NCBI GenBank assembly: GCA_905612235.1 | Contig: CAJQRF010000011.1 | Span: 40,835-104,834 of the forward strand | Direction: 5' to 3' | DNA length: 64,000 nucleotides | Source of the DNA: an uncultured Pelagibacteraceae bacterium | GTDB lineage: Bacteria; Pseudomonadota; Alphaproteobacteria; Pelagibacterales; Pelagibacteraceae | Part shown: piece after piece, positions 1,206-64,000 of the stretch | Layout: every line of letters begins with the position of its first letter | Numbering within the stretch: the stretch's first letter is position 1 | Program-made: the position numbers and the translations under genes | Notes under the pieces: model-generated | What the model saw: only the letters and a program-made list of their open reading frames with translations | What the model was told of the DNA's origin: nothing | Databases searched by the model: none

Positions 1206-1298
1206 ATTTTTAAAATCATAAGTTAATTGAAATAAATATTACAGTAAAGCTTCTTTAACAAACTTTAAAAAAGGTATAATAGAAGAGGTCTATAGACA

Positions 1299-2210
1299 AT
1301 GTTATCAAATAAAAAAATCATCTGCCCTATAAACTTGCTGGAAGTTGCTAAAAAATTTGGGATTATTAATGCTGCTATAGTTAATGCTGGAGAAATATTT
1401 CCTATGGAATCGGTGCATAAAGCAGTTGAGCATGGGTTAATCAATCCAATATTTATTGGAAACAAAAATGAAATTGAAAAATATGCCAAGAAATTAAATT
1501 GGGACATAAACAAATATGAAATTATCGACGAAAAAAATGAAAATGCTACAGCTCAGATAGCTGCAAAACTTGCAAGTGAAAATAAAGTAAAAGTTATAGT
1601 TAAAGGACATATACATACTGATGTGTTAATGAAAGCTGTTTTGAAAAGGGACTTAAATTTGATAGGCAAAAAGAGGTTAAGTCATGTATGGCATATGACA
1701 TTAAATTCTAATGACAAACCTTTTATAATCACTGATGGAGTGGTGAATGTGCTGCCTAAATTGGAAGTAAAAATGCATATACTAAAAAATGCTATAGATT
1801 TTGCCAAGAAGATTGGAATTTCTAGACCTAAAGTTGCCATTCTTTCAGCTACTGAAGAAGTAATAGAGAGTGTCCCTAGTTCAATTGACGCTGATATAAT
1901 TACAAAAAGAGTCAAGGATGAAAAAATTGATGCAGATGTTTTTGGTCCTCTAGCTTTTGACAATTCAGTATCAAAAAAATCTGCTTCCATTAAAAGAATT
2001 AAAAACTCTGTTTCAGGGGATGTTGATATAATGTTGGTTCCTAATATTGAGACAGGAAATGCGCTGGTTAAAATGATGATTTATTTTATGGGAGCTTGTG
2101 CTGCTGGGGTCGTATTAGGAGGAAAAGCTCCAGTTGTAATCACTAGCCGCTCAGATGAAGCTGAAGCAAGATTAGCCTCGATAGCTGCTTCAATAGTTGC
2201 ACTTGGTTAA
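1299..2210 (+). CDS. phosphate acetyl/butyryl transferase family protein (short Pta/Ptb type)
   Basis: 303 aa; family-like core and C-terminus (GGKAPVVITSRSDEAEARLASIA). Could convert Xsc-derived acetyl phosphate, but lies 17 kb from xsc. Confidence 0.7.
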   Translation: MLSNKKIICPINLLEVAKKFGIINAAIVNAGEIFPMESVHKAVEHGLINPIFIGNKNEIEKYAKKLNWDINKYEIIDEKNENATAQIAAKLASENKVKVIVKGHIHTDVLMKAVLKRDLNLIGKKRLSHVWHMTLNSNDKPFIITDGVVNVLPKLEVKMHILKNAIDFAKKIGISRPKVAILSATEEVIESVPSSIDADIITKRVKDEKIDADVFGPLAFDNSVSKKSASIKRIKNSVSGDVDIMLVPNIETGNALVKMMIYFMGACAAGVVLGGKAPVVITSRSDEAEARLASIAASIVALG

Positions 2211-2239
2211 TGTAAAAAAGTAGTATTATTAATTAACTT

Positions 2240-4117: not shown

Positions 4118-4647
4118 AGAATCACTTATTAAAAATACCTTTTATATTTTTTTCAATTATTTTATTAATATTTTTTTATTTACTAATAATTGAAAGAAAT
4201 CCTACAGACATTCCTTCCGCTTTATTAAATAAAAAAGTTCAACAGTTTGAAACTAGCTCATTATTTAATAGTCAAAAATTTAATTCTTCACAAGAATTTG
4301 ATAACAATGTAGTGTTAGTAAATTTTTTTGCTTCTTGGTGCAAGCCCTGTAGAGACGAACATAAGTTTATTAAAAAAATTTCTGAAAAAAAAAATTTAAA
4401 AATAATAGGCATAAATTATAAAGATAATCCTAAAAAAGCAATTGAATGGCTTGAAAAATTAGGAAACCCATATTCAAATGTTGCGATAGATAGAAATGGA
4501 GAAATTGCAATAGATTGGGGTGTGTACGGAATACCTGAGACTTTTATAGTTGATGCCAAAGGTATTATTAAATTCCGTCACGTGGGACCTATTACAAAAA
4601 AAATATACAAGAAAATTAATTTATTAATTGATGAAGTAAAGCAATGA
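4114..4647 (+). CDS. ccmG: thiol:disulfide oxidoreductase CcmG/DsbE
   Basis: WCKPC thioredoxin motif after one N-terminal TM segment. ATG at 4114 overlaps the ccmF stop (ATGA); the track ORF start at 4036 is an upstream extension inside ccmF. Confidence 0.85.
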   Translation: MKNHLLKIPFIFFSIILLIFFYLLIIERNPTDIPSALLNKKVQQFETSSLFNSQKFNSSQEFDNNVVLVNFFASWCKPCRDEHKFIKKISEKKNLKIIGINYKDNPKKAIEWLEKLGNPYSNVAIDRNGEIAIDWGVYGIPETFIVDAKGIIKFRHVGPITKKIYKKINLLIDEVKQ

Positions 4648-5054
4648 TTAAAAATAAATTTTTTATAATATTTTCTTTTTTTTTATTCCAAACTTTCTTA
4701 ACTAATATCGGAGCTGTAGAGCCTGATGAAGTTTTGAAAAATAATGCACAAGAATTAAGAGCTCGGAATATTTCTAAAAATATAAGATGTATGGTTTGCC
4801 AAAATCAATCTATTGATGAATCAGAGGCCCCTCTTGCTAAAGATTTGCGCATTTTAATTAGAAATAAAATTAAAAGTGGAAAAGATGACAAGGAAATTTA
4901 TAATTTTTTAACAAGTAGGTATGGAGATTTTATTCTTTTGCAACCTGCTTTTAAATTAAATACTTTTGCTCTTTGGTTGCTTCCAGTGTTTTTTTTGTTA
5001 ATAGGTGTCTATGTAATTTTTAGACAAAATAAGCTATTTAAGAGAAAATCTTAA
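4644..5054 (+). CDS. ccmH: cytochrome c-type biogenesis protein CcmH
   Basis: Signal peptide, then the CMVCQNQSIDES (CxxC) CcmH/CycL signature and a C-terminal TM; start overlaps the ccmG stop. Confidence 0.85.
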   Translation: MIKNKFFIIFSFFLFQTFLTNIGAVEPDEVLKNNAQELRARNISKNIRCMVCQNQSIDESEAPLAKDLRILIRNKIKSGKDDKEIYNFLTSRYGDFILLQPAFKLNTFALWLLPVFFLLIGVYVIFRQNKLFKRKS

Positions 5055-5059
5055 AATAT

Positions 5060-5770
5060 TTAATTATTTTTATTTTTTTTATTTACTTTAATTTTAATTA
5101 TTTCAACCTTGTATCTCATTAAAAAAATTATTAATGAGTATATTATCATTGCTGAAAGCATTATAACCAAAGGTACTAACATGGTGTTGTGTATTGTTGG
5201 GGCTGAAGTGAGAGTTATGCTAGATGGTTGATGAAGTGTATTCCACCAATCTACTGAATATTTTATAACTGGTAAATTAAATAATCCAATAATTCCAATT
5301 ACTGATGTTAATTTATTTGCCTCTTCAAAGTTTTTTACATAATTCCATAAAAAGATATAAGTAAGGTAAAAGAAAAACAAAACTAACATAGATGTTAATC
5401 TAGCATCCCAAACCCACCAGACGCCCCATGTTGGTTTTCCCCATAATGATCCTGTAATAATAGAAATCAATGCAAAAATACATCCAATTGGCGCAATGCT
5501 TTTTGCCATTAAAGAAACAAATTTTATTTTAAAAACTAAATTTAATATTGAGGCTATTCCAATAAATCCAAAAAAACCAAGTGATAAAATTGAAGCTGGC
5601 ACATGAACATACATTATTCTGACTGAGTCACCTTGAATGTAATCTGGGGGAGATAAAAATAATGCATATATTAATCCTATTATGATTATTAAAAGCATTA
5701 GAAATACTAAATTATTAATTAACTTATTATTTGATGAAAGAATTCTTTTGGGTAAAAAAAATTTAAGCAT
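5060..5770 (-). CDS. ccmC: heme exporter protein CcmC
   Basis: 236 aa membrane protein with the WWD motif WGVWWVWDARLTS. Confidence 0.9.
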   Translation of the reverse strand: MLKFFLPKRILSSNNKLINNLVFLMLLIIIIGLIYALFLSPPDYIQGDSVRIMYVHVPASILSLGFFGFIGIASILNLVFKIKFVSLMAKSIAPIGCIFALISIITGSLWGKPTWGVWWVWDARLTSMLVLFFFYLTYIFLWNYVKNFEEANKLTSVIGIIGLFNLPVIKYSVDWWNTLHQPSSITLTSAPTIHNTMLVPLVIMLSAMIIYSLIIFLMRYKVEIIKIKVNKKNKNN

Positions 5771-5818
5771 TTTTTAATATTACATTTATAGGTGTATTGT
5801 TAAATACATTTTTTAAAA

Positions 5819-6238
5819 TTATTTTTCTAGTGCTTCGCTAACTTCAGGTGGCATATAGTTTTCATCATGTTTTGCTAAAATTTTTTCTGCTATAAAGTAT
5901 TTTTTATCTTTTAATTTACCTTCGGCTATAACTCCTTTACCTTCTGAGAACAGATTAGGTAAAAGCCCATTATAATTTACAATTATCTCATTTTTTAAAT
6001 CAGTAATAATAAAATTTATCGACTCATCATTTTTAATAAATGAATTATCTTTAACAAGACCCCCTATTCTTATTTTTTTATTTAAAGAAATATTTTGTTT
6101 ATTTTTAATTTCCGTAGGAGAAAAAAAATAAACTAAATTTTCTTCTAAAGATCTAAATATAAAAGTAATGATGATGATTGAAATTATTACAAATGACACC
6201 AAGAATAACATTCTCGATTTTACTTTATTACCAAACAT
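5819..6238 (-). CDS. ccmE: heme chaperone CcmE
   Basis: N-terminal anchor, OB-fold-sized body and a heme-binding [13 protein letters not shown]-terminal motif. Confidence 0.85.
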
Positions 6239-6264
6239 TTAATATTTTTAACTAATTAGATTTT

Positions 6265-6480
6265 TTAAAAAATTGGACTTTTGGATAAAGACTTTCTTAA
6301 ATCAAAGTCTTCAATTTTAACATCTTGATTTTGTTGGTATTCATTTAAATATAACTTCTCATATTTTTTAAATTTTTTATATGTTTTTGCGTATAAAACA
6401 AAACAACTAAAAAAAGTAAAAATAAACGCTGGCCAAACAAATTGACCATAACCATTTAAAAATAAAAATTCTAAGTCCAT
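6265..6480 (-). CDS. ccmD: heme exporter protein CcmD-like small membrane protein
   Basis: 71 aa, single TM, NGYGQFVWPAF resembles the CcmD GGYxxFVW motif; directly upstream of ccmE. Confidence 0.55.
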   Translation of the reverse strand: MDLEFLFLNGYGQFVWPAFIFTFFSCFVLYAKTYKKFKKYEKLYLNEYQQNQDVKIEDFDLRKSLSKSPIF

Positions 6481-6637
6481 CTAAAATGACTATCCTAAAG
6501 ATTGTATAAAAATACAAGAGTTAAATTGTCCCTAAAACTCCATTAAATTACTTAGACATTTTGCCGTCTATGTAACTATTGAATTATAGCATATTTTAAT
6601 ACTTATAAATGTTGATAAAATTAATCACACTTAAAAT

Positions 6638-7822
6638 ATGAATTTTCAAAAAAAAAATACTAATTTTGACATTGTTATTGTAGGAGGTGGCCCTATAGGA
6701 ATAGCTTTCGCTTGCGGATTAGCAAATACTACAATTAAAATAGCTATTGTGGACAAGCTATCAAAATATGCAATATCAAATCCTAAAGTAGATGGAAGAG
6801 AAATTGCATTAACTCAACATTCATTAAAAATTTTAGAAAAACTAAATGTTTGGAATTACGTTCCTAAAAAATTAATATCTACGATTAAAGAAGCTCGTGT
6901 ATTAGATGGTAATTCCAAGTATTTTTTAAATTTTGCTCACAGCGAAATTAAAAAAGAATGTTTGGGTTATATTGTTCCAAATTATTTAATAAGAAAAAGT
7001 CTTTTTAAAAGGGTAAAAAATCTTAAAAATGTAACTTTAATAAATAATAGCGAATGCTTAGCAGTAAATATTTCTAAAAAGTACGCTACACTTAAAATGT
7101 CCAATAAAAAAAATATTAAAACTTCTTTAGTTGTCGCTGCTGACAGTCGTTTTTCTAAAATGCGTTCAAAAATGGGAATTGCTGCATTTACACGTAATTT
7201 TGATAAAAACATGATTGTTTGTAGAATGAGACACGGAAAATCTCATAAAAATATAGCTTATGAATTTTTTCGTTATAATCAAACACAAGCATCATTGCCA
7301 TATATTAAAAATCAATCTGGTATAGTAACAACAGCAACTAAAGATCTGACTGAAGTTTTAATGAAAATGAACAAAAAACAATTTAATAAAGAGATGGAAA
7401 ATAATTTTGATAGTTCTTTTGGAAAAATGGAACTTGTAGGCAAGCGCTACTCTTATCCTATGATCACAACTTATGCTAAAAAATTTATAGCACATCGGTT
7501 TGCTCTAATAGGTGATGCTGCTGTTGGAATGCATCCTGTAACTGCTCATGGATTTAATTTAGGTTTAAAAGGATTGGATATATTAAATACTGAAATTAAA
7601 AAAGCTTTAAAAAACAAAACTGATATTGGTATTATAGATGCTCTTAAAAATTACCAAACTAAGCTACATCGTGCTGCTGCACCTGTATACTTAGCAACCA
7701 ATGGAATAATTAATCTTTATACATCTAATATTTTGCCAGCCAAAATCACTAGGCAATTTATACTAAGATTTGTTAATATTGTAAAACCAATTAAACAAAC
7801 ATTTTTAAACATATTAAAATAA
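6638..7822 (+). CDS. FAD-dependent monooxygenase, UbiH/UbiF/Coq6 family (ubiquinone biosynthesis hydroxylase)
   Basis: VIVGGGPIG dinucleotide fold and the GDAAVGMHPVTAHGFNLG family signature. Confidence 0.75.
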   Translation: MNFQKKNTNFDIVIVGGGPIGIAFACGLANTTIKIAIVDKLSKYAISNPKVDGREIALTQHSLKILEKLNVWNYVPKKLISTIKEARVLDGNSKYFLNFAHSEIKKECLGYIVPNYLIRKSLFKRVKNLKNVTLINNSECLAVNISKKYATLKMSNKKNIKTSLVVAADSRFSKMRSKMGIAAFTRNFDKNMIVCRMRHGKSHKNIAYEFFRYNQTQASLPYIKNQSGIVTTATKDLTEVLMKMNKKQFNKEMENNFDSSFGKMELVGKRYSYPMITTYAKKFIAHRFALIGDAAVGMHPVTAHGFNLGLKGLDILNTEIKKALKNKTDIGIIDALKNYQTKLHRAAAPVYLATNGIINLYTSNILPAKITRQFILRFVNIVKPIKQTFLNILK

Positions 7823-7825
7823 TAT

Positions 7826-8830
7826 TCAAATTAACAAAATAATTTTTGGGGCTGCACATGTCCCTTCGTGTATTCGTTTAAAGGCTGATGATCCATCTTT
7901 TAATTTTCTATATTCAATCCAATCAAGTTTTCCTATTTTATTTTCTGCTAAAATGATTAAAGTTTTTTCAAAATCTTTATTTGTATAGCAATAAGTTCCA
8001 ATAAATGTAACTTCCTGGAGCGTTGCTTTTCTAAAATCAAAGCTTCCACTAGGTTGAGTAAGACCAATGTGAATAATGACCCCACCTGGTTTTATTGATT
8101 GCATGGCTTGTTTTCTAGTAACCTCCATACCAACTGTGTCAAAAACTAAATCAAAATGATCATTGACTACACTCTTGCTTTCTGGTTTTGCAGGTATTGC
8201 ATCTAAATATTTAGAGCATTCTGCTAATCTTTTTTCGTTCGGCTCGACAATTACTATTTCTTTACAATTTTTTACTTTAGATAAAATTAACCCACTGAGC
8301 AATCCAATTGCTCCACCTCCTATAACTAAAACTTTTGCATTTTTTAATGACTTTGAAAGTTCCTTTTCACCAAGTTCAACTGCGTGTAATGCTACTGCTG
8401 TAGGTTCTGCTATAGGCGCTTCTTTTATTTCTAAATTTTTTGGTAATTCGTATATATTTTTATCTGGAATAGAAACATATTCGGCAAAACCACCTTGTCT
8501 TTCGATGGGTCGATTCATGCCTAAAATAATTCTTTTTTCACATAAATGTTCTCTGCCGCTTGAGCAGTACTCGCATGCACCACAGGTAATTAAAGGATTT
8601 AGAATAACTTTTTTACCAGAAAATTTACCCTTGTCTATTGTGCCACTTATTTCATGCCCCAATATCAATGGTGGAATTCTTCTGTTATCTTTTCCATGAT
8701 AAGCATGCATATCTGAACCACAGATACCTGAGGCAAAAACTTTTACTATACTTTCTTTGTTTATAATTTTAGGATTTTTTTCTTCTCTGTAAATTAATTC
8801 TTGTGTGCCAGTATAAACAAGAGCTTGCAT
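7826..8830 (-). CDS. zinc-dependent medium-chain alcohol/polyol dehydrogenase
   Basis: GICGSDMH, GHEISGT, structural-zinc cysteines (CGACEYC) and a GGGAIGLL Rossmann motif. Confidence 0.8.
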   Translation of the reverse strand: MQALVYTGTQELIYREEKNPKIINKESIVKVFASGICGSDMHAYHGKDNRRIPPLILGHEISGTIDKGKFSGKKVILNPLITCGACEYCSSGREHLCEKRIILGMNRPIERQGGFAEYVSIPDKNIYELPKNLEIKEAPIAEPTAVALHAVELGEKELSKSLKNAKVLVIGGGAIGLLSGLILSKVKNCKEIVIVEPNEKRLAECSKYLDAIPAKPESKSVVNDHFDLVFDTVGMEVTRKQAMQSIKPGGVIIHIGLTQPSGSFDFRKATLQEVTFIGTYCYTNKDFEKTLIILAENKIGKLDWIEYRKLKDGSSAFKRIHEGTCAAPKIILLI

Positions 8831-50682: not shown

Positions 50683-52290
50683 TTACATATTTCCATACTT
50701 TGGACCGCCGCCGCCTTCTGGCGCTACCCAAATGATATTTTGAGATGGTTCTTTAATATCACATGTTTTACAGTGTATGCAATTCTGTGAATTAATTACA
50801 AATTTTTCTTGTTGCACTTCGTAAACCCCTACAGGACAGTATCGTTGAGCAGGTTCATCATATTTTTTTAATGTATAGTTGATTGGTAAATTAGGATCTT
50901 TTAATTTTAGATGCACAGGTTGGTTTTCAGTATGGTTGGTACCAGTTAAATAAACTGAACTTGTTTTATCAAATGTTAATTTTCCATCAGGTTTTGGATA
51001 TTCTATTTTTTTAGTTTCGTTAGCTAGTTCTAAAGATTTGTGATCAGCATGTTTATGTTTTAGAGTAAAAGGCAATTTTCCTCTAAATAATATTTGATCT
51101 ACCCCTGTAAAAATAATTCCTAAAATTAAACCCCAGCTAAAACTTGGTTTAACATTTCTTACCGCATAAAGCTCTTTGTAAGCCCAGCACTTTCGAAATT
51201 TTTTTTCATAGATTGATAAATCTGTTTTATTTTTTATATTTTCAACAATAGTTTCTGCTGCAACAATTCCACTCTTCATTGCTGTATGAGAGCCTTTAAT
51301 TTTTGTCATATTTAAGGTCCCTGCATCACAACCAATTAATAAACCACCGGGCATATACATTTTTGGTAAACTTTGGATACCACCTTCAATTAAAGCTCTT
51401 GCTCCAAATGCAATTCTTTTTCCTCCCTCTAGTATTTTTCTAATATCTTTATGAGTTTTAAATCTCTGAAATTCATCAAAAGGTGATAAATATGGATTTT
51501 TGTAATCTAAACCAATTACATAACCAATATAAATTTGTTTTTTTTCTGCATGATAAACAAAACTACCTCCATAAGTTTTGTTATCAAGTGGCCACCCAGT
51601 TGTATGCATAACCAAACCTTCTTCGTGTTGTTTTTCGTTAACTTCCCATATCTCTTTAAAACCAATTCCATATTGTTGTGGGTTTTTGCCATTATCAAGA
51701 TTGTATTTTTTAATAATTTCTTTTCCCAAATGGCCTCTACAGCCTTCTGCAAAAACGGTAACTTTAGCATGCAATTCCATGCCTTCTTGATATGTATCCT
51801 TTTTATGACCATTTTTATCTAAACCCATATCTAATGTGGCTACACCTTTTATTGATCCATTTTCATTATATAAAACTTCACTAGCTGGAAATCCTGGAAA
51901 TATTTCAACACCAAGTTTTTCTGCTTGTTCAGCTAACCAACGGCACAAATTAGCAAGGCTAATAATATAATTTTTATGATTTTTTTGAACAGGAGGCAAA
52001 AGCCATGTGGGCCAGCTAAAAGATTTACTTTTTCCTAAAAATAAGAATTTTTCTTTAGAAACTTTTGTTTTGACAGGAGCTCCTTCTTCTTGCCATTTAG
52101 GTAATAATTCATCAAGTGCTTTGGTTTCAAAAACGTTTCCACTTAATATATGAGCACCAACTTCTGATCCTTTTTCTAAAATACAAACACTGATATTTGG
52201 ATCAATTTGTTTTAATTTAATTGCAGTAGATAGGCCAGCTGGTCCTGCGCCAACAATTACTACGTCGTATTCCATTGCTTCTCTAGACAT
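50683..52290 (-). CDS. electron transfer flavoprotein-ubiquinone oxidoreductase
   Basis: VVIVGAGPAGLS FAD fold and a C-terminal CIHCKTCDIKEP cluster motif; 535 aa. Confidence 0.92.
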   Translation of the reverse strand: MSREAMEYDVVIVGAGPAGLSTAIKLKQIDPNISVCILEKGSEVGAHILSGNVFETKALDELLPKWQEEGAPVKTKVSKEKFLFLGKSKSFSWPTWLLPPVQKNHKNYIISLANLCRWLAEQAEKLGVEIFPGFPASEVLYNENGSIKGVATLDMGLDKNGHKKDTYQEGMELHAKVTVFAEGCRGHLGKEIIKKYNLDNGKNPQQYGIGFKEIWEVNEKQHEEGLVMHTTGWPLDNKTYGGSFVYHAEKKQIYIGYVIGLDYKNPYLSPFDEFQRFKTHKDIRKILEGGKRIAFGARALIEGGIQSLPKMYMPGGLLIGCDAGTLNMTKIKGSHTAMKSGIVAAETIVENIKNKTDLSIYEKKFRKCWAYKELYAVRNVKPSFSWGLILGIIFTGVDQILFRGKLPFTLKHKHADHKSLELANETKKIEYPKPDGKLTFDKTSSVYLTGTNHTENQPVHLKLKDPNLPINYTLKKYDEPAQRYCPVGVYEVQQEKFVINSQNCIHCKTCDIKEPSQNIIWVAPEGGGGPKYGNM

Positions 52291-52311: not shown

Positions 52312-53265
52312 TTATTTTTGGATAGTGTTGAGTTTGTTTAACTCTTCTAAAAATTGTGGCAAAGCTTCAAATAAATCTGCCTCAAGACCATAGTCAGCAA
52401 TGCTAAAAATTGGAGCTTCTCCATCCTTATTTATTGCTACAATCACTTTGCTTTCCTTCATGCCAGCTAAGTGTTGAATTGCCCCTGAAATTCCTACAGC
52501 AATATATAAATCTGGAACAACAACCTTGCCAGTTTGTCCCACTTGATGATCATTGCCAATATAACCAGCATCTACAGCTGCTCTGGATGCTCCTACTGCA
52601 GCGTTTAATTTGTCAGCAATAGAATTAATAAGTTTAAAATTTTCTCCACTTTGCATGCCACGGCCACCTGATATTACTATTCTAGCCGTTCCTAACTCAG
52701 GTCTTTCAGATTTTGTTTCTTCTCTTTTGATAAATTTTGATACATTTTTGATATCAGCAGGTTCTATTTTTTCTATGGATGCCGATCCACCTGATTTTGG
52801 TGCAGGCTCAAATGAAGTTGGTCTTATTGTTATACATTTTTTTTTATCACTACTTTTTACCGTTGCAAATGCATTGCCAGCATAAATTGGTCTTAAAAAT
52901 TCTTCTGAATTATTTATTTTAATTACATCACTTATTTGCGAGCTATCCAGTAACGCAGAAACTCTTGGCATAAAGTTTTTTCCAAAAGTATTAGCAGATG
53001 CAATTATATGTGTATAAGACTCTGAAACTTTAATTATTAAAGGAGTTAAATTTTCTGCTAAAAAATTTTCATAATTTGGTGAATCGCAGTAAATAACTTT
53101 TTTTACTAACGGAATTGCCGCAACTTCTTTTGCTACGCTATCGCATTTATTTCCAGCAACTAAAACATGTGTTTCTTTATCAATTTTAGATGCTGCTGTA
53201 ATTGCATTTAAAGTAAAGACCTTTAAATTTGAATTATCATGTTCAGCAATTAGTAAAATTGACAT
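52312..53265 (-). CDS. etfA: electron transfer flavoprotein alpha subunit
   Basis: AVGISGAIQHLAGM FAD-binding signature. Confidence 0.92.
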   Translation of the reverse strand: MSILLIAEHDNSNLKVFTLNAITAASKIDKETHVLVAGNKCDSVAKEVAAIPLVKKVIYCDSPNYENFLAENLTPLIIKVSESYTHIIASANTFGKNFMPRVSALLDSSQISDVIKINNSEEFLRPIYAGNAFATVKSSDKKKCITIRPTSFEPAPKSGGSASIEKIEPADIKNVSKFIKREETKSERPELGTARIVISGGRGMQSGENFKLINSIADKLNAAVGASRAAVDAGYIGNDHQVGQTGKVVVPDLYIAVGISGAIQHLAGMKESKVIVAINKDGEAPIFSIADYGLEADLFEALPQFLEELNKLNTIQK

Positions 53266-54014
53266 TATATAACTTTAGCCTCGTTTTTAAGTTTACTAAT
53301 TAATTCAGCAACATTAGCTACTTTTATTCCACTTTTTCTTTTTGGTGGTTCTTCAACTTTGATTTGCTGAATCCTGTTTGTAATATCTACACCAAGATCT
53401 TTAGCATTTAATTGTTCAATTGGCTTTTTCTTCGCTTTCATTATATTGGGTAGAGAAGCAAACCTTGGTTCATTAAGTCTTAAATCGCACGTTATAATTG
53501 CTGGTAGATTAATTTGTATAGTTTCCAAACCTTCATCAACTTCTCTCGTTACTTCAATAACTTTATCTTTATGTTCAATTTTTGATGCAAAAGTTCCTTG
53601 GGGCCAATCCAGCATAGCAGCTAGCATTTGTCCTGTTTGATTACAATCGTCATCAATAGCTTGCTTTCCTAAAAAAACAAGATCAGGTTTTTCTTTTTCA
53701 ACAATTTTTTTTAAAACTTTTGCTATACCTAGAGGTTCTATATAATTATCTGATTTGACATGTATACCTCTGTCCGCTCCGACTGCTAGAGCTTTTCGCA
53801 CTGTTTCTTGAGCTTTTTCTTCCCCAATTGTAACAGCAATAATTTCTTTTGCTTTACCAGATTCTTTTAACCTTACAGCTTCTTCAATAGCATTATCATC
53901 TGGAGGATTTGTTGACATTTTGACATTATCTTTATTAACACCACTGCCATCTTCTTTAACTCTAATTTGCACATTGTAATCAATAACCCTTTTAACAGCG
54001 ACTAAAATTTTCAT
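53265..54014 (-). CDS. etfB: electron transfer flavoprotein beta subunit
   Basis: [16 protein letters not shown]-terminus and the overall EtfB pattern; 1-nt overlaps on both sides. Confidence 0.92.
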
Positions 54015-56446
54015 TATCCTCTTAAAAGTTTATTTTCTGAATCATAAGGACTCTCTTCTAAAATGGTAGCATCATACATTTTTCCAAGAATATCAATTTT
54101 CAATTTTTGTCCTGTTGTCGCAATCTCTGGTTTAACCATTCCTAAAGCTATCGATTTACCCAATCTAAAACCAAAATCTCCTCCAGTTGCTCGACCAACA
54201 ACTTTCCCTTTATCATAAATAGGGTTATTTCCTAATACGTCTGCATCTTCAACATTATGAATTTCTAAAGTTACTAATTTATTATTAAAACCTTTTTCTC
54301 TCCATTTATTTAAAGCTTCTAATCCAATAAAATTTCCTTTATTTGGGTGGACAAACCTATCCAATCCAGATTCATAAGGTGAATATTCAATTGATAATTC
54401 AGTTCCTACCAATTTATATGATTTTTCAAGCCTTAAACTGTTCATGGCTCTAATGCCATAAGGTTTAAGTCCTAAGTCTTTTCCAGCTTCCATTAATTTA
54501 TCAAAAATGTGGTTTTGGTACTCGATTGGATGATGCAGCTCCCAACCTAGTTCTCCAACAAAATTTACTCTCATAGCATTAACTGGTGCGTTTCCAACAT
54601 TTACATTTTTTGCACTTAACCATTTAAAATTATCGTTGGAAAAATCATCTTTTGAGACTCTTTTCATTAAATCTCTGGCTTTAGGACCTGACACAACCAA
54701 AACTCCTAAACTATTAGTTAAGTTTTCAAATTGAACGCTTCCATCTTTTGGCATCCATTTATTAATCCAATCATGATCTAATCTTTGATTGGCACCTGCA
54801 GAAACTAAATAAAAACTATCTTCGCTTTCCCTCATGATTGTAAATTCAGAGTGAACTCCTCCTTTTGTATTTAGTGCATGACACAAACCAATTCTTCCTA
54901 TTTTTTTAGGAAGTTTATTAGCTACTAAATAATCTAAAAAATTTTCTGCTCCTGGTCCTTTTATTCTGCATTTTGCAAATGCTGTCATATCTAGTAACCC
55001 AACATTTTCTCTAACATTTTTGCACTCTTTTTCTATCGCTTTAAACCATTTAGATCTTCGAAAAGACCAATCATCTTTCTGCCCCATCCCATCCACTGCA
55101 AAAAAGTTTGGTCTTTCCCAACCAAATTTTTGACCAAAAACTGCACCTAGATTTTTCATTCTGTCATAACAAGGTGATGTTCTTAATTCTCTAGCAGCGC
55201 CTCTTTCTTCATCTGGGTAATGAACTTTAAATACATGATTATATGCTTCTTCATTTTTTTCTTTAAGATATGATTTGGTTGCATAATCACCATATCGTCT
55301 TGGTTCAACACCAAGCATATCTACTGTTGGTTCACCATCTACTATCCATTCAGCAAGTTGCCAGCCAGCTCCTCCTGCTGCTGTAATACCAAAACTATGT
55401 CCTTCATTAATCCAAAAATTTTTTAAACCCCACGCAGGACCAACGATTGGATTTCCGTCTGGCGTATAACAAATAGCACCATTGTAAACTTTTTTAACTC
55501 CAACTTCACCAAAAGCTGGAACACGATGAATTGCACCTTCTATATGTGGAGCAAGTCTATCTAAATCTTCTTGAAATAATTCATATTCTGAATCTTTTGA
55601 AGGTCCATCAACATAACAACATGGAGCTCCATCTTCGTAAGGTCCTAATAGTAATCCTCCCGCTTCTTCTCTCATATACCACCTGCTATCACTATCTCTT
55701 AGCACTCCCATTTCCGGTAGGCCGTCTTTTTTCCTTTTTTGAATTTCAGGATGCGCTTCAGTAACTATATATTGATGCTCTACTGGAATCGCAGGAATAT
55801 TAAGGCCAACCATTTCACCAGTTTGTCTAGCAAAATTTCCTGTGCATGAAACAACATGTTCACATTCTATTGTTCCTTTGTCAGTTTCTACCACCCAGCC
55901 ATTTTTTGTTTGTTTAATTCCAGTTACTACTGTGTTTCTATAAATTTCTGCTCCTCTATTCCTAGCACCCGTAGCTAAAGCTTGAGTTAGATCTGCTGGC
56001 TGAATATAACCATCCTCTGGATGTTGAATCGCACCAACTAAATCTTTAACATTACATAAAGGCCAAATATCTTTTACTTGTTGTGGTGTTAAAAACTTCA
56101 CATCAACACCAATGGTTTGAGCAACACCTGCGTACTGGTGATATTCATCCATTCTATCTTTTGTGCTAGCTAAACGAATATTTGATACAACGCTAAATCC
56201 TACATTTTTACCAGTCTCTTTTTCTAAAGTTTTATAAAAATCAACAGCATACTTATGAAGTTGTCCTACGGAATAACTCATATTAAATAGAGGTAATAGA
56301 CCAGCTGCATGCCAAGTCGAGCCTGATGTTAATTCTTTTCTTTCAACGCAAACGACATCAGACCATCCTTTTTTCGCTAAATGGTAGAGCATACTAACTC
56401 CAACAACCCCTCCCCCGATTACGACTACTTTGGCTTTTGATTTCAT
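54014..56446 (-). CDS. dimethylglycine/sarcosine dehydrogenase family (FAD oxidoreductase fused to a GcvT-type folate domain)
   Basis: 810 aa; [15 protein letters not shown] domain followed by an aminomethyltransferase-like C-terminal half; co-oriented with etfBA and ETF-QO. Confidence 0.85.
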
Positions 56447-58439: not shown

Positions 58440-59879
58440 TTATTTTACCTCACGAGTATTTGCGTTAAATGATTCTGTAAACGGAATTGGCACTACTACA
58501 GCGTCAACTGGTTTACTAGAATACTTTGCTGGCAAGTGAACTTTATATTTCTTTCCAAAATTGGCAATTGGGAAACCTTTAGCGTTCTTGTGTCCTTCAT
58601 ACGGAACATATCCCATTGCAATATTTTTACCTTTTTCTGGGTGATACCAAGGAGAGGTAATATAACCAACCGGTTTACCTCCTTCGGCATCTGATATTAA
58701 CCAGAAGTCTGGAGCATATTCTTCAATTGGTTTTCCACCTAATTCCATACCGACAAGTTGAAGTTTGTAAGGTTTGTCTCCATTAGAAATTTGGCTTTTC
58801 ATTTTTTCTAAAGCCTCTTTCCCAATATAATCAGCTGATTTGTTCCATTCACCTTTTCCAGATAAGGAAACTTGATATCCTAAGTTACACTGAAAAGGAT
58901 TATGTTCATTATCCATATCTTGACCCCAAGATAATATTCCAGCTTGAATTCTTCTATGGTGAGCAGGAGCAATAACCATTAATTTATGTTTCTTTCCAGC
59001 TTTAAGAACTGCATTCCACATATCTTCAGCATATAAAGTTGCATCACGAAGATAAATTTCATAACCAGCTTCACCTGAGAAACCAGATTGTGAAATTACA
59101 CAACTTCTTCCTCCAACTTTAGCTTCGGCTAAACCATAAAATGGCATGTTGTCTAAATCAACTTGATCTCCAATTAAATCTTTCATTAAAGCTTTTGATT
59201 TAGGGCCTTGAATTTGAACTGGACAAGAATCAATTTCATCAATTTCGACATTGAATCTTTTATCTGCATTCACTCCTTGCAAATATAAGCCTATACCTGA
59301 ATCTGATAAACTAAACCAAAATTCATCTTCTGCTACTCTTAACAAAACAGGATCGTTTAATACTCCACCGTTGTAGTTACAAAGAATAACATAACGTGCT
59401 CTCATTGTTGAAATTTTAGTAGCATCACGTGTTATTACATAATCTGTAAATTTTTCAGCATCAGGTCCTTTAACACGTATTTGTCTTTCAACAGCAACGT
59501 TCCACATTGTTACGTGTTTTTTAATTGCTTCATATTCAACCATAGCTCCACCTTTTTCAGGTCTCACATAACCTCGAGGATGGTAAATACGGTTATAAAT
59601 TGTAGCTCTCCAACATCCTGCTTTCATTGATAAATGCCAATAAGGGGATTTTCTTACTCTTGTTGAAATTAACATTTCAACTTTAGTAGAACCACTTTGT
59701 CTTAAATTGTAAGGAACGCGTCTATCTGATTGATCTACAGATGTTTCGTGTCTAACTTTACTGTAATCAACTTTTTCAGGTTTAAAAGAAACTGATTTAG
59801 TTTTTTTTACTTTTTTAACTTTTTTAACTTTAATTTTTTTAGATTTACTTTTTTTAGATTTTTTCTTTTTTTTAGGCAT
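58440..59879 (-). CDS. GcvT/DmdA-family tetrahydrofolate-dependent (amino)methyltransferase with a Lys-rich N-terminal extension
   Basis: Core RKSPYW...AGC..ATIYN...P.GY...EYEAIKKHVTMWNVAVERQIRVKGPDAEKF...RD parallels DmdA/GcvT N-terminal regions. The ATG at 59879 overlaps the upstream stop by 8 nt; the track start at 59969 lies inside the upstream gene. Confidence 0.78.
   Translation of the reverse strand: MPKKKKKSKKSKSKKIKVKKVKKVKKTKSVSFKPEKVDYSKVRHETSVDQSDRRVPYNLRQSGSTKVEMLISTRVRKSPYWHLSMKAGCWRATIYNRIYHPRGYVRPEKGGAMVEYEAIKKHVTMWNVAVERQIRVKGPDAEKFTDYVITRDATKISTMRARYVILCNYNGGVLNDPVLLRVAEDEFWFSLSDSGIGLYLQGVNADKRFNVEIDEIDSCPVQIQGPKSKALMKDLIGDQVDLDNMPFYGLAEAKVGGRSCVISQSGFSGEAGYEIYLRDATLYAEDMWNAVLKAGKKHKLMVIAPAHHRRIQAGILSWGQDMDNEHNPFQCNLGYQVSLSGKGEWNKSADYIGKEALEKMKSQISNGDKPYKLQLVGMELGGKPIEEYAPDFWLISDAEGGKPVGYITSPWYHPEKGKNIAMGYVPYEGHKNAKGFPIANFGKKYKVHLPAKYSSKPVDAVVVPIPFTESFNANTREVK
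59793..59879 (-). repeat. Lys-codon low-complexity tract with 9-nt periodicity
   Basis: Encodes MPKKKKKSKKSKSKKIKVKKVKKVKKTKS (18 Lys in 29 residues). Plus-strand TTTTTTAAC-type units repeat at 59801-59840. Confidence 0.6.
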
Positions 59880-60600: not shown

Positions 60601-60693
60601 AGCCTACGGGATATATCAGCGGACCTAGGTGAATGTCCAGCAATTTCATCTAAAACCTATTGCCTATTTTAACTAAAATGTTAGGTTTTTAAT

Positions 60694-61890
60694 ATGACTT
60701 CTAAGCTTAATGGTCACAGAAATATATATGACGTTGTAAAAAAAGGAAAATTAGACGTTGTTAATCAACCTATAAGTAAAGCTCACGGTCTTCCTAACGA
60801 ATGTTATAATAGTAGGGAATACACAAGTATTGAAAGAAAGAAAATATTTGAAGACAAATGGATAGTTGTTGGTGTTGCTAGTTCAATCTCCAAACCTGGA
60901 GATGCAAAACCTTTTGATGTACTTGGCATTCCTTTAATTTTATTAAGAACCAAAAACAATAAAATCAAAGTATACCATAATGTGTGTAGCCACAGAGGTT
61001 ATAAAATTTTACAAAAAGAATGTTCTATTAAAAATATATTAAGATGTCCTTATCATTCTTGGTCTTATAATCTTGAAGGAAAGCTAGTAGCCACTCCTCA
61101 TTTAGGGGGAATGAATAAACACAATTCTAAAGATTTTGACAAATCTATAAATGGTCTTAAAGAAGTTCGTTCATATGTTTGGCTAGACATGATTATGGTC
61201 AATATTTCTAATAACGAAATTCCTTTTGAACAATATATTAAACCTTTACAGGATCGTTGGTCTAAGTTTTGGCCAAAAAAAGATCAGAAACTAATTCAAC
61301 ATTCAAAAGATTTAGGTTATTTTAAATTGACAGCAAAATGCAATTGGAAGTTTGCAATAGAAAATTACTGTGAAAGTTATCATCTTCCATGGGTTCACCC
61401 TGGATTAAATTCTTACTCCAAAATTAGTGATCATTATCACATTGAAGGTTTGCCTAATAAATTTGCTGGACAAGGTACCATTGTATATAACCCAAGATTT
61501 AAAGGTAAACTTAAATTTCCGTGCTTTCCTAATTGGCCTAAAGATAAATTAAATATTGCTGAATATGTTGCTCTGTTTCCAAATGTAATGCTAGGAATTC
61601 ATAAAGATCACTATTATGCTTATTGGCTGGAACCAGTTAGTCATGAATTAACTATTGAGCATATGGAAATTTATTATGTAGGAAATATAGGAGCAAATTC
61701 AAAAAAATTTAAAAATCTTAGAAAACAAAATTTTAAACTTTGGCATAGTGTACAAACTGAAGATGTTGGTATTATTGAAGGAATGCAAGAAGGAAGAAAT
61801 TCTCCTTCTTATAATGGTGGTAATTTTTCTCCAGTTATGGATAATCCAACTCATCATTTTCATAAATGGATAGCAAAGAATTTAGTTTAA
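60694..61890 (+). CDS. Rieske [2Fe-2S] non-heme iron oxygenase, alpha-subunit type
   Basis: CSHRG-x17-CPYHSW Rieske motif, then a catalytic domain with ENYCESYHLPWVHP-type iron ligands. No reductase partner in the window. Confidence 0.85.
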   Translation: MTSKLNGHRNIYDVVKKGKLDVVNQPISKAHGLPNECYNSREYTSIERKKIFEDKWIVVGVASSISKPGDAKPFDVLGIPLILLRTKNNKIKVYHNVCSHRGYKILQKECSIKNILRCPYHSWSYNLEGKLVATPHLGGMNKHNSKDFDKSINGLKEVRSYVWLDMIMVNISNNEIPFEQYIKPLQDRWSKFWPKKDQKLIQHSKDLGYFKLTAKCNWKFAIENYCESYHLPWVHPGLNSYSKISDHYHIEGLPNKFAGQGTIVYNPRFKGKLKFPCFPNWPKDKLNIAEYVALFPNVMLGIHKDHYYAYWLEPVSHELTIEHMEIYYVGNIGANSKKFKNLRKQNFKLWHSVQTEDVGIIEGMQEGRNSPSYNGGNFSPVMDNPTHHFHKWIAKNLV

Positions 61891-61891
61891 T

Positions 61892-62743
61892 ATGAATAAT
61901 AGATTAGAGGCTATTGTTGATCTTCATAAATATCCAATTCAGGATCTAAATTCCTCATTAATAAAAGAAGTAATCCAAAAATGTAAAAAAGATTTAAACC
62001 AGTTTAGTTGCGCAACTATTCCTGATTTTATTTTACCTAAATCTTTAAAAATCATGCACTCAGAGTTAGAAAAACAACTCGATGAAGTTTATATGTCAAA
62101 ACAAAGTATCAATGCTTATTTATATTCTAAAAATGATCCTTCCCTACCTAAAGAACACCCAAAACGAATATTTATGGATCGTTATAACGGTTATTTAAAT
62201 TCAGAAGTCTTTGATAAAGATTCAGAAATGAAATTTCTTTATGAACAAGATGAACTTTTAAAGTTTGTTTCTGCTTGTCTTGGAGTGTCACCAATCTACA
62301 GATGGGCTGATCCTTTAGCTTGTCATGCTTACAATGTTATGAATCCTGAAGGAATTCTTCCTTGGCACTTTGATAGTTGTGAATTTACTTTAAGTTTTAT
62401 GATACAAAAGCCAGAAAACGGTGGAATATTTGAGTACTGCCCTAATATACGTGAACCAGGAAATGAAAATTTAGAAGAGGTTAAAAAAGTACTTAATGGA
62501 AATCGTAAAGGAGTTCGTCAATTAAAGTTAGAGCCAGGTGATTTACAAATATTTAAAGGGCGTTTTACACTTCATCGTGTTACAAAAATAGAAGGAAGCC
62601 GCGCAAGATATCTTTGTATACCAGCTTATGTTCTGGATCCTTGGAGAGTAAATACTCCTGAACATTCAAAAGCTATATATGGAAAAGTATTACCCATTCA
62701 TATTGAAAGAAATAAGCTTAGATCGGATGGTTTAGCTGATTAA
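61892..62743 (+). CDS. Fe(II)/2-oxoglutarate-dependent oxygenase-like protein
   Basis: 283 aa; WHFDS (HxD) and a distal LHRV His with a basic residue downstream; family uncertain. Confidence 0.45.
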   Translation: MNNRLEAIVDLHKYPIQDLNSSLIKEVIQKCKKDLNQFSCATIPDFILPKSLKIMHSELEKQLDEVYMSKQSINAYLYSKNDPSLPKEHPKRIFMDRYNGYLNSEVFDKDSEMKFLYEQDELLKFVSACLGVSPIYRWADPLACHAYNVMNPEGILPWHFDSCEFTLSFMIQKPENGGIFEYCPNIREPGNENLEEVKKVLNGNRKGVRQLKLEPGDLQIFKGRFTLHRVTKIEGSRARYLCIPAYVLDPWRVNTPEHSKAIYGKVLPIHIERNKLRSDGLAD

Positions 62744-63470
62744 GAAAAATATTAATGAAGCTGAATGGAAAGTAAGAGTTGATCTTGCTGCCATGTTTAG
62801 ACTAACTCACATGATGGGTTGGGATGATACTGTTTGGAATCATATAACTGCTAGAACACCTGGAACAGATCATACTTTTTTCATGCATGAATTTGGGCTT
62901 GTTTATGAAGAAATAAAAGCTTCAAATTTAATTAAAGTAGATGAAAATGGCAAAGTTTTAGAAGGACCAGAAAATGTAAATACAGCAGGTTTCATAATTC
63001 ATAGCGCAGTTCACTTAAATCATCCAAAAAATAAATTTGTTTTTCATGCCCATCCGCCAAAAGCATTAGCTGCAACATTATTAAAAGATGGAATTCCATA
63101 TTTAGTTCAGGACTCAGCAATGCTTTATGGAAAAGTGGGTTATCATAACTGGGAAGGTGTGTCGGTAGATAAAGATGAAAGATTTAGAATAGCGGAAAAT
63201 CTTGGAGAAAATAAAGTTTTAATTATGAGAAATCATGGGCTTTTAACTGTTGGAGAAACAGCGGGAGAGTCATTCATGAATATGTATTATGCCATAAGAA
63301 TGTGCGAAGTTGCGGTGCAAGCTCAAGGTTCAAATTTAAAATTAAAAACACCAGAAAAATCTTTATGGGAAAAAACTGTAAAGGCATATGATGCTTTTGC
63401 TCCAGGACCAAATGAATGGCCGGCTTTGCTCAGGAGATGCGATGCTATAGATCCATCATATAAGGAATAA
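62739..63470 (+). CDS. class II aldolase/adducin N-terminal domain family protein
   Basis: EAEWKVRVDLAAMFRL..MMGWDD.V.NHITAR and HSAVH...HAHPP motifs. The conserved N-terminus lies upstream of the first ATG (62793), so a non-ATG start (ATT 62739 or 62751) is inferred. Confidence 0.75.
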   Translation: MKKNINEAEWKVRVDLAAMFRLTHMMGWDDTVWNHITARTPGTDHTFFMHEFGLVYEEIKASNLIKVDENGKVLEGPENVNTAGFIIHSAVHLNHPKNKFVFHAHPPKALAATLLKDGIPYLVQDSAMLYGKVGYHNWEGVSVDKDERFRIAENLGENKVLIMRNHGLLTVGETAGESFMNMYYAIRMCEVAVQAQGSNLKLKTPEKSLWEKTVKAYDAFAPGPNEWPALLRRCDAIDPSYKE

Positions 63471-63472
63471 TT

Positions 63473-64000
63473 ATGTCGAGTAGTATAAATAAAGTAACTG
63501 TTATAGGAACTGGGGTTATTGGTGCTGGGTGGATTATTAGATGCTTAGCTCATAATAAAAAAGTTGTTGCATTTGACAAAGATCTAAAATTAAAAAAAAA
63601 ACTAGTTGCTGAGATAAAACGTACTTGGCCTTATGTAAAAAAATTATTCAATAAAAAAACACTTAATTTAAAAAACTTCAAATATGTTACTTCAATAGAA
63701 GAAGCTTTGAAAGAAGCTGACTTTATACAGGAGTGTGCAACTGAAAATTATAAAATAAAAACTAAAATAATGAGTATTATTGGAAAGTACTCAAAACCTA
63801 ATGCTATAATTTCATCAAGTTCATCTGGACTGCTTCCAACAAGAATATATTCTAAATGTAAAAATCCAGCGCGAGCTATGATTGGGCACCCTTTTAATCC
63901 TGTTTATATGTGTCCAGGAGTAGAAATTGTCCCCGGTAAAAAAACTAAAAAAAAATTCCTAAATAGAGCTAATAAATTTTATAAATCAATATCGATGAAT
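63473..64000 (+). CDS. 3-hydroxyacyl-CoA dehydrogenase-fold enzyme, L-carnitine dehydrogenase-like (3' end outside window)
   Basis: Open to the window end: MSSSINKVTVIGTGVIGAGWIIRCLAHNKKVVAFD...WPYV...ECATENYKIK...GHPFNP, matching the carnitine dehydrogenase N-terminal pattern (GxGVIGxGW..R.LAHG..V.A.D). Confidence 0.75.
   Translation, partial: MSSSINKVTVIGTGVIGAGWIIRCLAHNKKVVAFDKDLKLKKKLVAEIKRTWPYVKKLFNKKTLNLKNFKYVTSIEEALKEADFIQECATENYKIKTKIMSIIGKYSKPNAIISSSSSGLLPTRIYSKCKNPARAMIGHPFNPVYMCPGVEIVPGKKTKKKFLNRANKFYKSISMN

Follow-up and report, generated by a model that had tools for sequence, protein, structure and literature searches.

We analyzed an operon at the downstream edge of a 64,000-nucleotide stretch of DNA from an uncultured Pelagibacteraceae bacterium (positions 40,835 to 104,834 of contig CAJQRF010000011.1; hereafter the window). 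The source genome belongs to SAR11 (Pelagibacterales), as the Pelagibacterales or Candidatus Pelagibacter names of close homologs show, and is represented by an 835-kb, 62%-complete assembly. The window is ~30% G+C, and its contig (C11) runs on for 23 kb beyond the window end. All genes of the operon lie on the same strand and encode, in order, a Rieske oxygenase alpha subunit (gene 1), an Fe(II)/2-oxoglutarate (2OG) hydroxylase of the BesD/HalD fold (gene 2, HalD-like), a class II aldolase/adducin-family protein (gene 3), an L-carnitine dehydrogenase (CDH)-like protein (gene 4), and an FrhB/FdhB-like flavin/[4Fe-4S] protein (gene 5). Set against 201 sampled Pelagibacterales genomes, 153 of them of high quality, this operon is a lineage-specific, compacted join of a SAR11 group Va Rieske gene, an accessory module, and a relocated CDH ortholog, inside a betaine and one-carbon island. 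It belongs with the catabolic clusters for quaternary amines and osmolytes and holds an uncharacterized, environmentally abundant enzyme module. Family calls were made from Pfam and NCBIfam profile scores against curated cut-offs, and gene linkage and distances from match coordinates compared across genomes. We found no characterization of this gene combination in the published literature.

A tightly packed operon of five genes

The original prediction for this locus, made from the window alone, described one operon of four genes with junctions of 1 nt, an overlap, and 2 nt. The coordinates of the four open reading frames (ORFs) and their junctions agree with ours (Table 1), and the packing is indeed of operon type, but the gene count was too low, as a fifth, FrhB-like gene follows beyond the window end. 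After gene 5 come a 354-nt gap, a convergent aldehyde dehydrogenase (ALDH) gene, an agmatinase gene, and then typA, nadA, and nadC. The gap and the convergent ALDH gene indicate that the operon consists of five genes. Within the gap lies a 65-amino-acid (aa) ORF with two hydrophobic/transmembrane segments, and a 67-aa gene is called at the same position on a related metagenome contig.

At the other end, the intergenic region upstream of gene 1 is presumed, from its place between two divergent genes, to carry the promoters of both transcription units. In a scan of the operon for consensus promoters and terminators, sites were no more common than in shuffled sequences, and an Rfam search of positions 1-8500 of region L001 returned zero matches.

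Table 1. Coordinates of the operon, its surroundings, and a gene pair found in related operons. L001 is C11:101000-120000 (window coordinate = L001 + 60165), L025 is G105:C7, and L026 is G035:C1.
Feature	Position	Strand	Remarks
Gene 1, Rieske oxygenase alpha subunit	60694-61890	+	Stop TAA at 61888-61890
Gene 2, Fe(II)/2OG hydroxylase, BesD/HalD fold	61892-62743	+	1-nt spacer after gene 1
Gene 3, class II aldolase/adducin family	62739-63470	+	Apparent ATT start; 5-nt overlap with gene 2 stop
Gene 4, CDH-like, 5' part	63473-64000	+	2-nt spacer after gene 3
Gene 4 in full, 315 aa	L001 3308-4255; end at window-equivalent 64420	+	Contig past the window
Gene 5, FrhB/FdhB-like flavin/[4Fe-4S] protein, 408 aa	L001 4258-5484 (window-equivalent 64423-65649)	+	2 nt after gene 4
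ORF of 65 aa	L001 5634-5831 (window-equivalent 65799-65996)		Inside the 354-nt gap
Divergent intergenic region, 93 nt	60601-60693	.	Between MTHFR-like and Rieske genes; read from sequence
MTHFR-like protein, 242 aa	59872-60600	-	Divergent from Rieske gene
GcvT-family aminomethyltransferase-like gene	58440-59879	-	Pfam GCV_T 137 bits and GCV_T_C; second gene of divergent pair
Dimethylglycine dehydrogenase (DMGDH)	54014-56446		Profile calls
Electron-transfer flavoprotein (ETF) beta and alpha	52312-54014		Profile calls
ETF-quinone oxidoreductase (ETF-QO)	50683-52290		Profile calls
APS-kinase-like/small-gene pair	L012 10474-11255; L016 10657-11438; L025 3928-4338 and 8856-9230; L026 8775-9556		

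A Rieske oxygenase of predicted quaternary-amine type

Pfam and NCBIfam profiles bore out all four family assignments of the original prediction. Gene 1 has both domains of its family (Rieske, 65 bits; Ring_hydroxyl_A, 140.8 bits in Pfam), with the Rieske motif formed by C98-S-H100 and C118-P-Y-H121. Its closest solved structure is CntA (6y8j, E = 3.6e-30, residues 31-376 aligned). In the alignment, Y225, E227, H230, H235, and D357 fall on CntA Y203, E205, H208, H213, and D323 (CntA numbering as in PMC7948474; the PDB chain is offset by +20), so that E227 corresponds to the bridging carboxylate and H230, H235, and D357 to the 2-His-1-Asp mononuclear iron site. Y225 sits in the motif NYCESYH, opposite Y203 in the NYMECYH of CntA. 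An aromatic residue at CntA position 203 makes a pi-cation contact to the trimethylammonium group, and this position divides clade Va (CntA, choline monooxygenases, and OxyBAC), which oxidizes chain carbons, from clade Vb (GbcA and Stc2), which N-demethylates and carries Asn there (PMC7948474). Because Y225 occupies the position of CntA Y203, gene 1 is, on the evidence of its sequence, a group Va Rieske oxygenase of the quaternary-amine type. Together with the MTHFR-like/GcvT-like pair, which flanks the Rieske gene in divergent SAR11 genomes, this CntA Tyr203-type residue upholds the earlier proposal of a link to quaternary-amine and one-carbon metabolism.

Gene 1 shares its two-domain architecture, Rieske motif, bridging Glu, iron site, and Tyr with CntA of the CntA/CntB system (Acinetobacter baumannii), choline monooxygenase, and OxyBAC. 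However, phmmer gives it a low score against CntA, 108.7 bits, which excludes orthology, and no CntB-type reductase is encoded near it. More broadly, the operon and ~10 kb to each side of it contain no FNR or ferredoxin-type reductase; no genome-wide search was made. The clade of gene 1 also differs from CntA in being SAR11-wide, with a Rieske ortholog in 95 of the 153 high-quality genomes, and in usually standing first in a betaine operon by homocysteine S-methyltransferase-family and OpuAC transporter genes. An assignment as GbcA was rejected, given a score of 120.6 bits where the equivalog NF058607 calls for 670 and an alignment limited to residues 27-240.

A HalD-like hydroxylase and a class II aldolase-like enzyme

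Gene 2 matches the Pfam family HalD (PF23169) with 46 bits against a cut-off of 26. Its AlphaFold model (pLDDT 96.3) is closest among Protein Data Bank (PDB) folds to HalD, HalB, BesD, HalA, and Hydrox (TM-scores 0.64-0.78, 13-18% identity), and every one of the top 41 fold matches is BesD, HalA, HalB, HalD, or Hydrox. These nearest folds act on free lysine or ornithine, which points to a small zwitterionic substrate for gene 2. Where the aligned HalD has WHWG, gene 2 has the triad residues H159-F-D161 (HxD). W158-H159-x-D161 is invariant in 109 family representatives, and H228 and R239 are conserved in 98% and 96%. The invariance of the HxD triad across the family indicates that gene 2 is a hydroxylase and not a halogenase; the HxG/A signature of the latter is missing, and WHxD is present in 109/109 representatives. 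The original prediction had supposed a substrate that was already hydroxylated, whereas an HxD-type Fe/2OG enzyme more likely adds the hydroxyl itself.

With the BesD/HalA-D halogenases and their lysine-hydroxylase homolog, gene 2 has the fold, the 2OG-binding Arg, and the distal His in common. By contrast, it is of the HxD hydroxylase type and lies in a catabolic operon of primary metabolism, and nothing points to lysine or ornithine. A HalD-like ortholog is present in 48/153 high-quality genomes, and HalD-like clusters from metagenomes reach up to 9291 members, all unnamed. In genome G105, the HalD-like gene has a tandem duplicate, the two copies being ~50% identical.

Gene 3 belongs to Aldolase_II (PF00596, 137.9 bits) and to the PRK07044 subfamily (NF005451, 266.7 bits vs. 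a cut-off of 207). Its closest solved structure, 3ocr (E = 4.7e-49), itself has no assigned function. The motifs FHAHPP (H103, H105) and RNHG (H166) are visible in the sequence, and gene 3 is probably a metal-dependent decarboxylase or lyase. Close orthologs occur in 17 of the 201 genomes (16 of those of high quality), always beside an FrhB-like gene.

The start of gene 3 is unusual. The frame is open from 62736, after an in-frame TAG at 62733-62735, and its first ATG (62793) lies downstream of the conserved N-terminus. An ATT at 62739 aligns with the ATG start of four orthologs (G105, G009, G083) and overlaps the gene 2 TAA as AUUAA. On metagenome contig P0271, which encodes an FrhB-like protein 94% identical to gene 5, the first-ATG call of 225 aa and the 49-nt gap are the same as in the window. 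Because the start arrangement on that contig is identical, the apparent non-canonical start is common to a related population and is no sequencing error. The overlap between genes 2 and 3 could allow termination-reinitiation coupling.

A carnitine dehydrogenase-like enzyme apart from BKACE

Gene 4 has a 3HCDH_N domain (128 bits) plus 3HCDH. For the full 315-aa protein, the best NCBIfam model is L-carnitine dehydrogenase (NF005471/PRK07066), at 347.5 bits against an equivalog cut-off of 414. CDH-like orthologs are found in 92/201 genomes (58/153 of high quality) and BKACE in 61/153, and the two genes are normally neighbors: BKACE lies within 100 nt of the CDH-like ortholog in 83 of the 92 genomes. 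They are apart in seven, including the genome of the window, where BKACE is at C33:5204-6067, on a contig other than that of the operon and convergent with an OpuAC-permease-ATPase-SDR unit (L042 1253-6076, on G000 C33). With BKACE on C33 and CDH in the operon, the carnitine genes of this genome occupy two separate loci.

No BKACE, thioesterase, or Rieske reductase occurs in the operon or adjoining it, as the original prediction had noted from the window, and the operon matches no textbook pathway for carnitine, glycine betaine, or stachydrine. On the contig, textbook carnitine genes do not come after the operon, yet part of the textbook carnitine route is present elsewhere in the genome in dispersed form. 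The classical route runs through CDH, BKACE, and betainyl-CoA thioesterase, and the likeness to it lies in the best model of gene 4 and in a BKACE beside an OpuAC ABC transporter. However, CDH is here detached from BKACE and placed between the aldolase-like and FrhB-like genes, behind two oxygenases, with no thioesterase in view.

Among the seven genomes in which CDH and BKACE are split, CDH adjoins a HalD-like or FrhB-like gene in five (the window genome, G105, G165, G043, and G159), and no more than 2 kb separates FrhB-like from CDH-like in G043, G159, G069, G105, and the window. The G069 island (L043, G069:C1:950001-969000) holds a GMC oxidoreductase, an HD protein, two TauD-family enzymes (one with a GBBH-like N-domain), a thioesterase, and a class II aldolase paralog, as well as BKACE, CDH, a GFA protein, an SDR, FrhB-like and HalD-like genes, an ABC ATPase, and GDPD. 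A carnitine/betaine island of Arctic SAR11 has been annotated with CDH, BKACE, BBOX, and a class II aldolase (PMC12421898); the G069 island is alike, with HalD-like and FrhB-like genes added, and in both CDH and BKACE are joined by a class II aldolase. The window operon overlaps the Arctic island in protein families, but the published list for the latter is without Rieske, HalD-like, and FrhB-like genes, and we rejected the two as equivalent.

An FrhB-like protein that does not use F420

Gene 5 matches FrhB_FdhB_C (PF04432, 104 bits) and FrhB_FdhB_N (PF04422, 42 bits). Eight cysteines (C16, C19, C22, C61, C185, C212, C279, and C282), arranged as CxxCxxC...CP plus four more, do not vary among 16 sequences with identities as low as 31%. 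The best fold for its model is 8riu_B (TM-scores 0.66/0.72), with matches to the F420-reducing modules of CODH and Fwd, to Fsr, FrhB, and FdhB, and to plant HCAR. Domains, cysteines, and fold are thus those of the FrhB/FdhB modules (CODH, Fwd, the N-terminal half of Fsr, FrhB, and HCAR). By contrast, gene 5 belongs to an aerobic alphaproteobacterium that does not make F420, and its genomic partners are an Fe/2OG hydroxylase and a class II aldolase rather than a hydrogenase, formate dehydrogenase, or sulfite reductase. A search for cofH (TIGR03551) in seven complete SAR11 genomes that carry the module gave no match above 28 bits vs. a cut-off of 374, and this absence rules out F420 as the partner of gene 5.

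A close FrhB-like gene is present in 19 of the 153 high-quality genomes, whereas the Rieske gene is in 95, and in most genomes with the module the two are 0.4-1 Mb apart; we therefore rejected gene 5 as an obligate Rieske reductase. This leaves it as a putative HCAR-like catalyst or as a facultative partner in electron transfer.

Gene order across SAR11 and beyond

In G157 and G035, which show the typical layout, a long betaine operon begins with the Rieske gene, and this gene is divergent from either an OpuAC transporter gene or the MTHFR-like/GcvT-like pair. Next come homocysteine S-methyltransferase-family (BHMT-like), DMGDH/SARDH-like, methyltransferase, M24, and small APS-kinase-like genes. 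A further small gene is followed by HalD-like, enoyl-CoA hydratase, and CoA-binding genes, and later by ETF-QO, DMGDH, and ETF. In 41/51 HalD-positive genomes (40/50 without the window), a HalD-like copy follows the Rieske gene on the same strand at a distance of 0.8-7.5 kb. Direct abutment of the two is limited to the window among sampled Pelagibacterales, with 0 of the 200 other genomes sharing it. The four-gene block is thus not conserved, an outcome that the original prediction had listed as refuting it; conservation extends to sub-blocks and to the looser linkage of Rieske and HalD-like genes.

Two small genes precede HalD-like in typical operons, one encoding a 135-136-aa APS-kinase-like P-loop protein and the other a 124-135-aa protein without a Pfam match; both are absent from the window. 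The betaine operon of G105 carries two inserted autotransporter beta-domain genes (707 and 750 aa; L025 4422-8823 and 9227-10922).

The accessory module of HalD-like, dehydrogenase, class II aldolase, and FrhB-like genes occurs in about 12% of genomes. Of the 19 other FrhB-positive genomes, 16 have it as a contiguous unit, and in G069 HalD-like directly abuts FrhB-like. The module follows the Rieske gene and faces the MTHFR-like/GcvT-like pair in G005, G009, and G101, and in about a dozen genomes it is 0.4-1 Mb from the Rieske gene. A metagenome variant, also opposite the MTHFR-like/GcvT-like pair, runs Rieske, ALDH, M24, HalD-like, aldolase, FrhB-like. In G083 (L022, G083:C1), a 393-aa protein without a Pfam match (L022 10741-11922) is encoded directly 5' of a paralogous module of HalD-like, HIBADH-like, aldolase, and FrhB-like genes, and a 171-aa SRPBCC protein 3' of the module.

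The dehydrogenase of the module is HIBADH-like in the annotated loci (L016, L022) and CDH-like in the window, G105, and the P0271 contig, where the order is HalD-like, aldolase, CDH, FrhB-like. Gene 4 stands where most copies of the module have a HIBADH-like beta-hydroxyacid dehydrogenase. The use of two beta-hydroxyacid dehydrogenase families in one slot suggests that a beta-hydroxy acid, also acceptable to carnitine dehydrogenase, is oxidized by the module. Of the 16 other genomes with a contiguous module, 14 lack both CDH and BKACE, and these have the HIBADH-type module.

Outside SAR11, FrhB-like homologs in 400 sampled Pseudomonadota genomes were at most 42% identical, and none adjoined a HalD-like or aldolase homolog. 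Metagenome contigs from outside SAR11 held just pairs or triples of HalD-like, HIBADH-like, and aldolase genes, and HalD-like genes there accompany HIBADH-like, class II aldolase, MR/MLE, or FGGY kinase genes. Two published systems were considered and set aside: the homarine hom operon (PMC13236597), which differs in protein families, and the MtgBCD system (PMC12478193), which SAR11 lacks according to that paper.

A possible pathway and its alternatives

Taking gene content, residues, folds, distribution, and linkage as observed, we infer a substrate, an order of steps, and every reaction of a candidate pathway. We tentatively favor an oxidative route, independent of CoA, that breaks down a small onium carboxylate of gamma-butyrobetaine or carnitine type, a reading that we find plausible while stopping short of calling it likely. 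The gene 2 hydroxylase would first put a beta-hydroxyl on the onium carboxylate, the NAD-dependent dehydrogenase (gene 4) would then yield the beta-keto acid, and the class II aldolase-type enzyme would decarboxylate or cleave this keto acid via a metal-bound enolate. In a fourth step, the Rieske enzyme would oxidize a carbon beside the onium group, either of this betaine or of a related one, in the manner of CntA and choline monooxygenase. Products such as trimethylamine, glycine betaine, and C1 units could feed the neighboring DMGDH, ETF, and folate enzymes, and methyl groups may be transferred to the latter, as the original prediction proposed. The BKACE on the other contig would offer the keto acid its classical, CoA-dependent alternative fate, and gene 5, a flavin/2x[4Fe-4S] oxidoreductase, might act on a pathway intermediate in an HCAR-like way or hand electrons to a partner.

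A precedent for the second and third steps exists in threonate catabolism, where LtnD and OtnC pair a beta-hydroxyacid dehydrogenase with a class II aldolase-family decarboxylase. The pairing of an NAD-dependent beta-hydroxyacid dehydrogenase with a class II aldolase/adducin protein is shared between this acid-sugar catabolism and the module, suggesting keto-acid decarboxylation in the latter. However, the operon has no kinase or isomerase, no OtnC model matched, its other partners are Fe/2OG and FrhB-like proteins, and its substrates are probably not phosphorylated.

Several observations weigh against a single carnitine-type pathway. The block is unique to its lineage, so its co-transcription might be a product of genome compaction and not the mark of a single pathway, and in carrier genomes the module is mostly 0.4-1 Mb from the Rieske gene. 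The 14 module genomes without CDH or BKACE indicate that neither is essential to the module, and gene 4 itself scores under the NCBI equivalog cut-off for carnitine dehydrogenase. The canonical GBBH-like TauD enzymes of the G069 island would make a BBOX-like role of HalD-like redundant there. The kinase, small gene, enoyl-CoA hydratase, and CoA-binding neighbors of HalD-like in typical operons hint at other chemistry. Class II aldolase-family enzymes usually chelate an alpha-hydroxy-carbonyl group, and 3-dehydrocarnitine is without one. The scheme also gives the FrhB-like protein no defined role.

The main alternative is that the operon is a co-transcribed patchwork produced by genome streamlining, in which three independent routes share a promoter and a theme of osmolyte catabolism. 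The Rieske enzyme would serve choline/betaine-type oxidation to glycine betaine, CDH would serve the CDH/BKACE carnitine route, and HalD-like, aldolase, and FrhB-like would act on an unrelated substrate. We consider this rather unlikely. In its favor, the units occur independently (Rieske in 95/153 genomes, CDH with BKACE in ~58, the module in ~16-19), the module is usually distant from the Rieske gene, CDH is normally tied to BKACE, the exact arrangement is limited to this lineage, and other variants shuffle ALDH, M24, kinase, and enoyl-CoA hydratase genes into the operon. Yet where CDH has parted from BKACE it adjoins HalD-like or FrhB-like in 5/7 genomes, and it stands in for the HIBADH-like dehydrogenase of the module, which argues for a function within it. 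The same-strand linkage of Rieske and HalD-like genes in 41/51 genomes likewise speaks against unrelated routes.

A bolder form of the carnitine-type reading is that the operon encodes an unrecognized CoA-independent SAR11 route for carnitine/gamma-butyrobetaine-type betaines or their sulfonium analogs. Genes 2-4 would shorten the chain, and the FrhB-type enzyme would either carry out reductive C-N or C-S cleavage of an alpha-onium ketone or serve as a new class of Rieske reductase, with trimethylamine and a C3 unit released. We regard this full scheme as improbable.

It is likewise improbable that sulfonium osmolytes such as dimethylsulfoniopropionate (DMSP), gonyol, and dimethylsulfonio-hydroxybutyrate are the actual substrates. 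Gonyol is a 3-hydroxy acid analogous to carnitine. The pi-cation Tyr of gene 1 would bind dimethylsulfonium, and the GcvT-like and MTHFR-like proteins would remove an S-methyl group as methyl-tetrahydrofolate. Among NCBIfam models, DMSP demethylase does score best for the GcvT-like protein, but the 238 bits fall far under the DmdA cut-off of 410, and we rejected the protein as DmdA at the equivalog level. Its pairing with an MTHFR-like protein is what might be expected of a demethylase that forms methyl-tetrahydrofolate, and related operons carry M24 (the family of DddP), enoyl-CoA hydratase, and CoA-binding genes that resemble acrylate/DMSP handling. However, the wider context of BKACE, CDH, GBBH-like enzymes, and OpuAC transporter is of the carnitine/betaine type, and every characterized group V Rieske enzyme acts on ammonium compounds (PMC7948474).

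A biosynthetic or modifying role, in which the hydroxylase and its partners would make a hydroxylated compatible solute or an activated head group, is very improbable: the small APS-kinase-like and 124-135-aa genes that precede HalD-like in typical SAR11 operons would suit it but are absent here, the neighbors (DMGDH, ETF, ETF-QO, ALDH, and BKACE) are catabolic, a decarboxylase and a dehydrogenase point to degradation, and SAR11 oxidizes osmolytes for energy (PMC3160333).

Relevance to osmolyte turnover in the ocean

SAR11 is the most abundant heterotroph of the surface ocean, and its turnover of nitrogen and sulfur osmolytes (glycine betaine, trimethylamine N-oxide, DMSP, homarine, and carnitine) shapes marine fluxes of carbon, nitrogen, and trace gases. 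The genes discussed here are not rare, with the Rieske gene in ~60% and HalD-like in ~30% of sampled SAR11 genomes, and thousands of unnamed metagenome members in HalD-like clusters. Should the operon encode a new route for carnitine-type betaines, it would be an additional marine source of trimethylamine, and three enzyme families would gain a new use: BesD-fold hydroxylases, here in primary catabolism; class II aldolases of the adducin type; and FrhB-type proteins that work without F420. If it does not, the labels “carnitine dehydrogenase” and “F420 hydrogenase beta subunit” would still be unsafe to take at face value. Gene order within this island of SAR11 is so mosaic that adjacency in one genome cannot define pathways.

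Flanking betaine and one-carbon genes

The divergent MTHFR-like/GcvT-like pair and the genes for DMGDH, ETF, and ETF-QO lie where the original prediction placed them. The MTHFR-like protein scores 21.8 bits with Pfam MTHFR, under the cut-off of 24, and is 73% identical to its G009 counterpart. Its ortholog is near-core in SAR11, present in single copy in 126/153 high-quality genomes, mostly beside the Rieske gene, and always followed by the DmdA-like GcvT gene. The GcvT-like protein is 81% identical to the product of the same-position gene in G009, and its true start is probably the ATG at ~59879 rather than the TTG at 59969. In strain HTCC1062, SAR11_1264 (metF) and SAR11_1265 (aminomethyltransferase) are co-regulated and go down under sulfur limitation (PMC5069961); the pair in the window probably corresponds to these two genes. 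In G035, the GcvT-like gene beside the MTHFR-like gene is split into two ORFs of 310 and 162 aa (L026 5395-6754), which may reflect a frameshift or a pseudogene.

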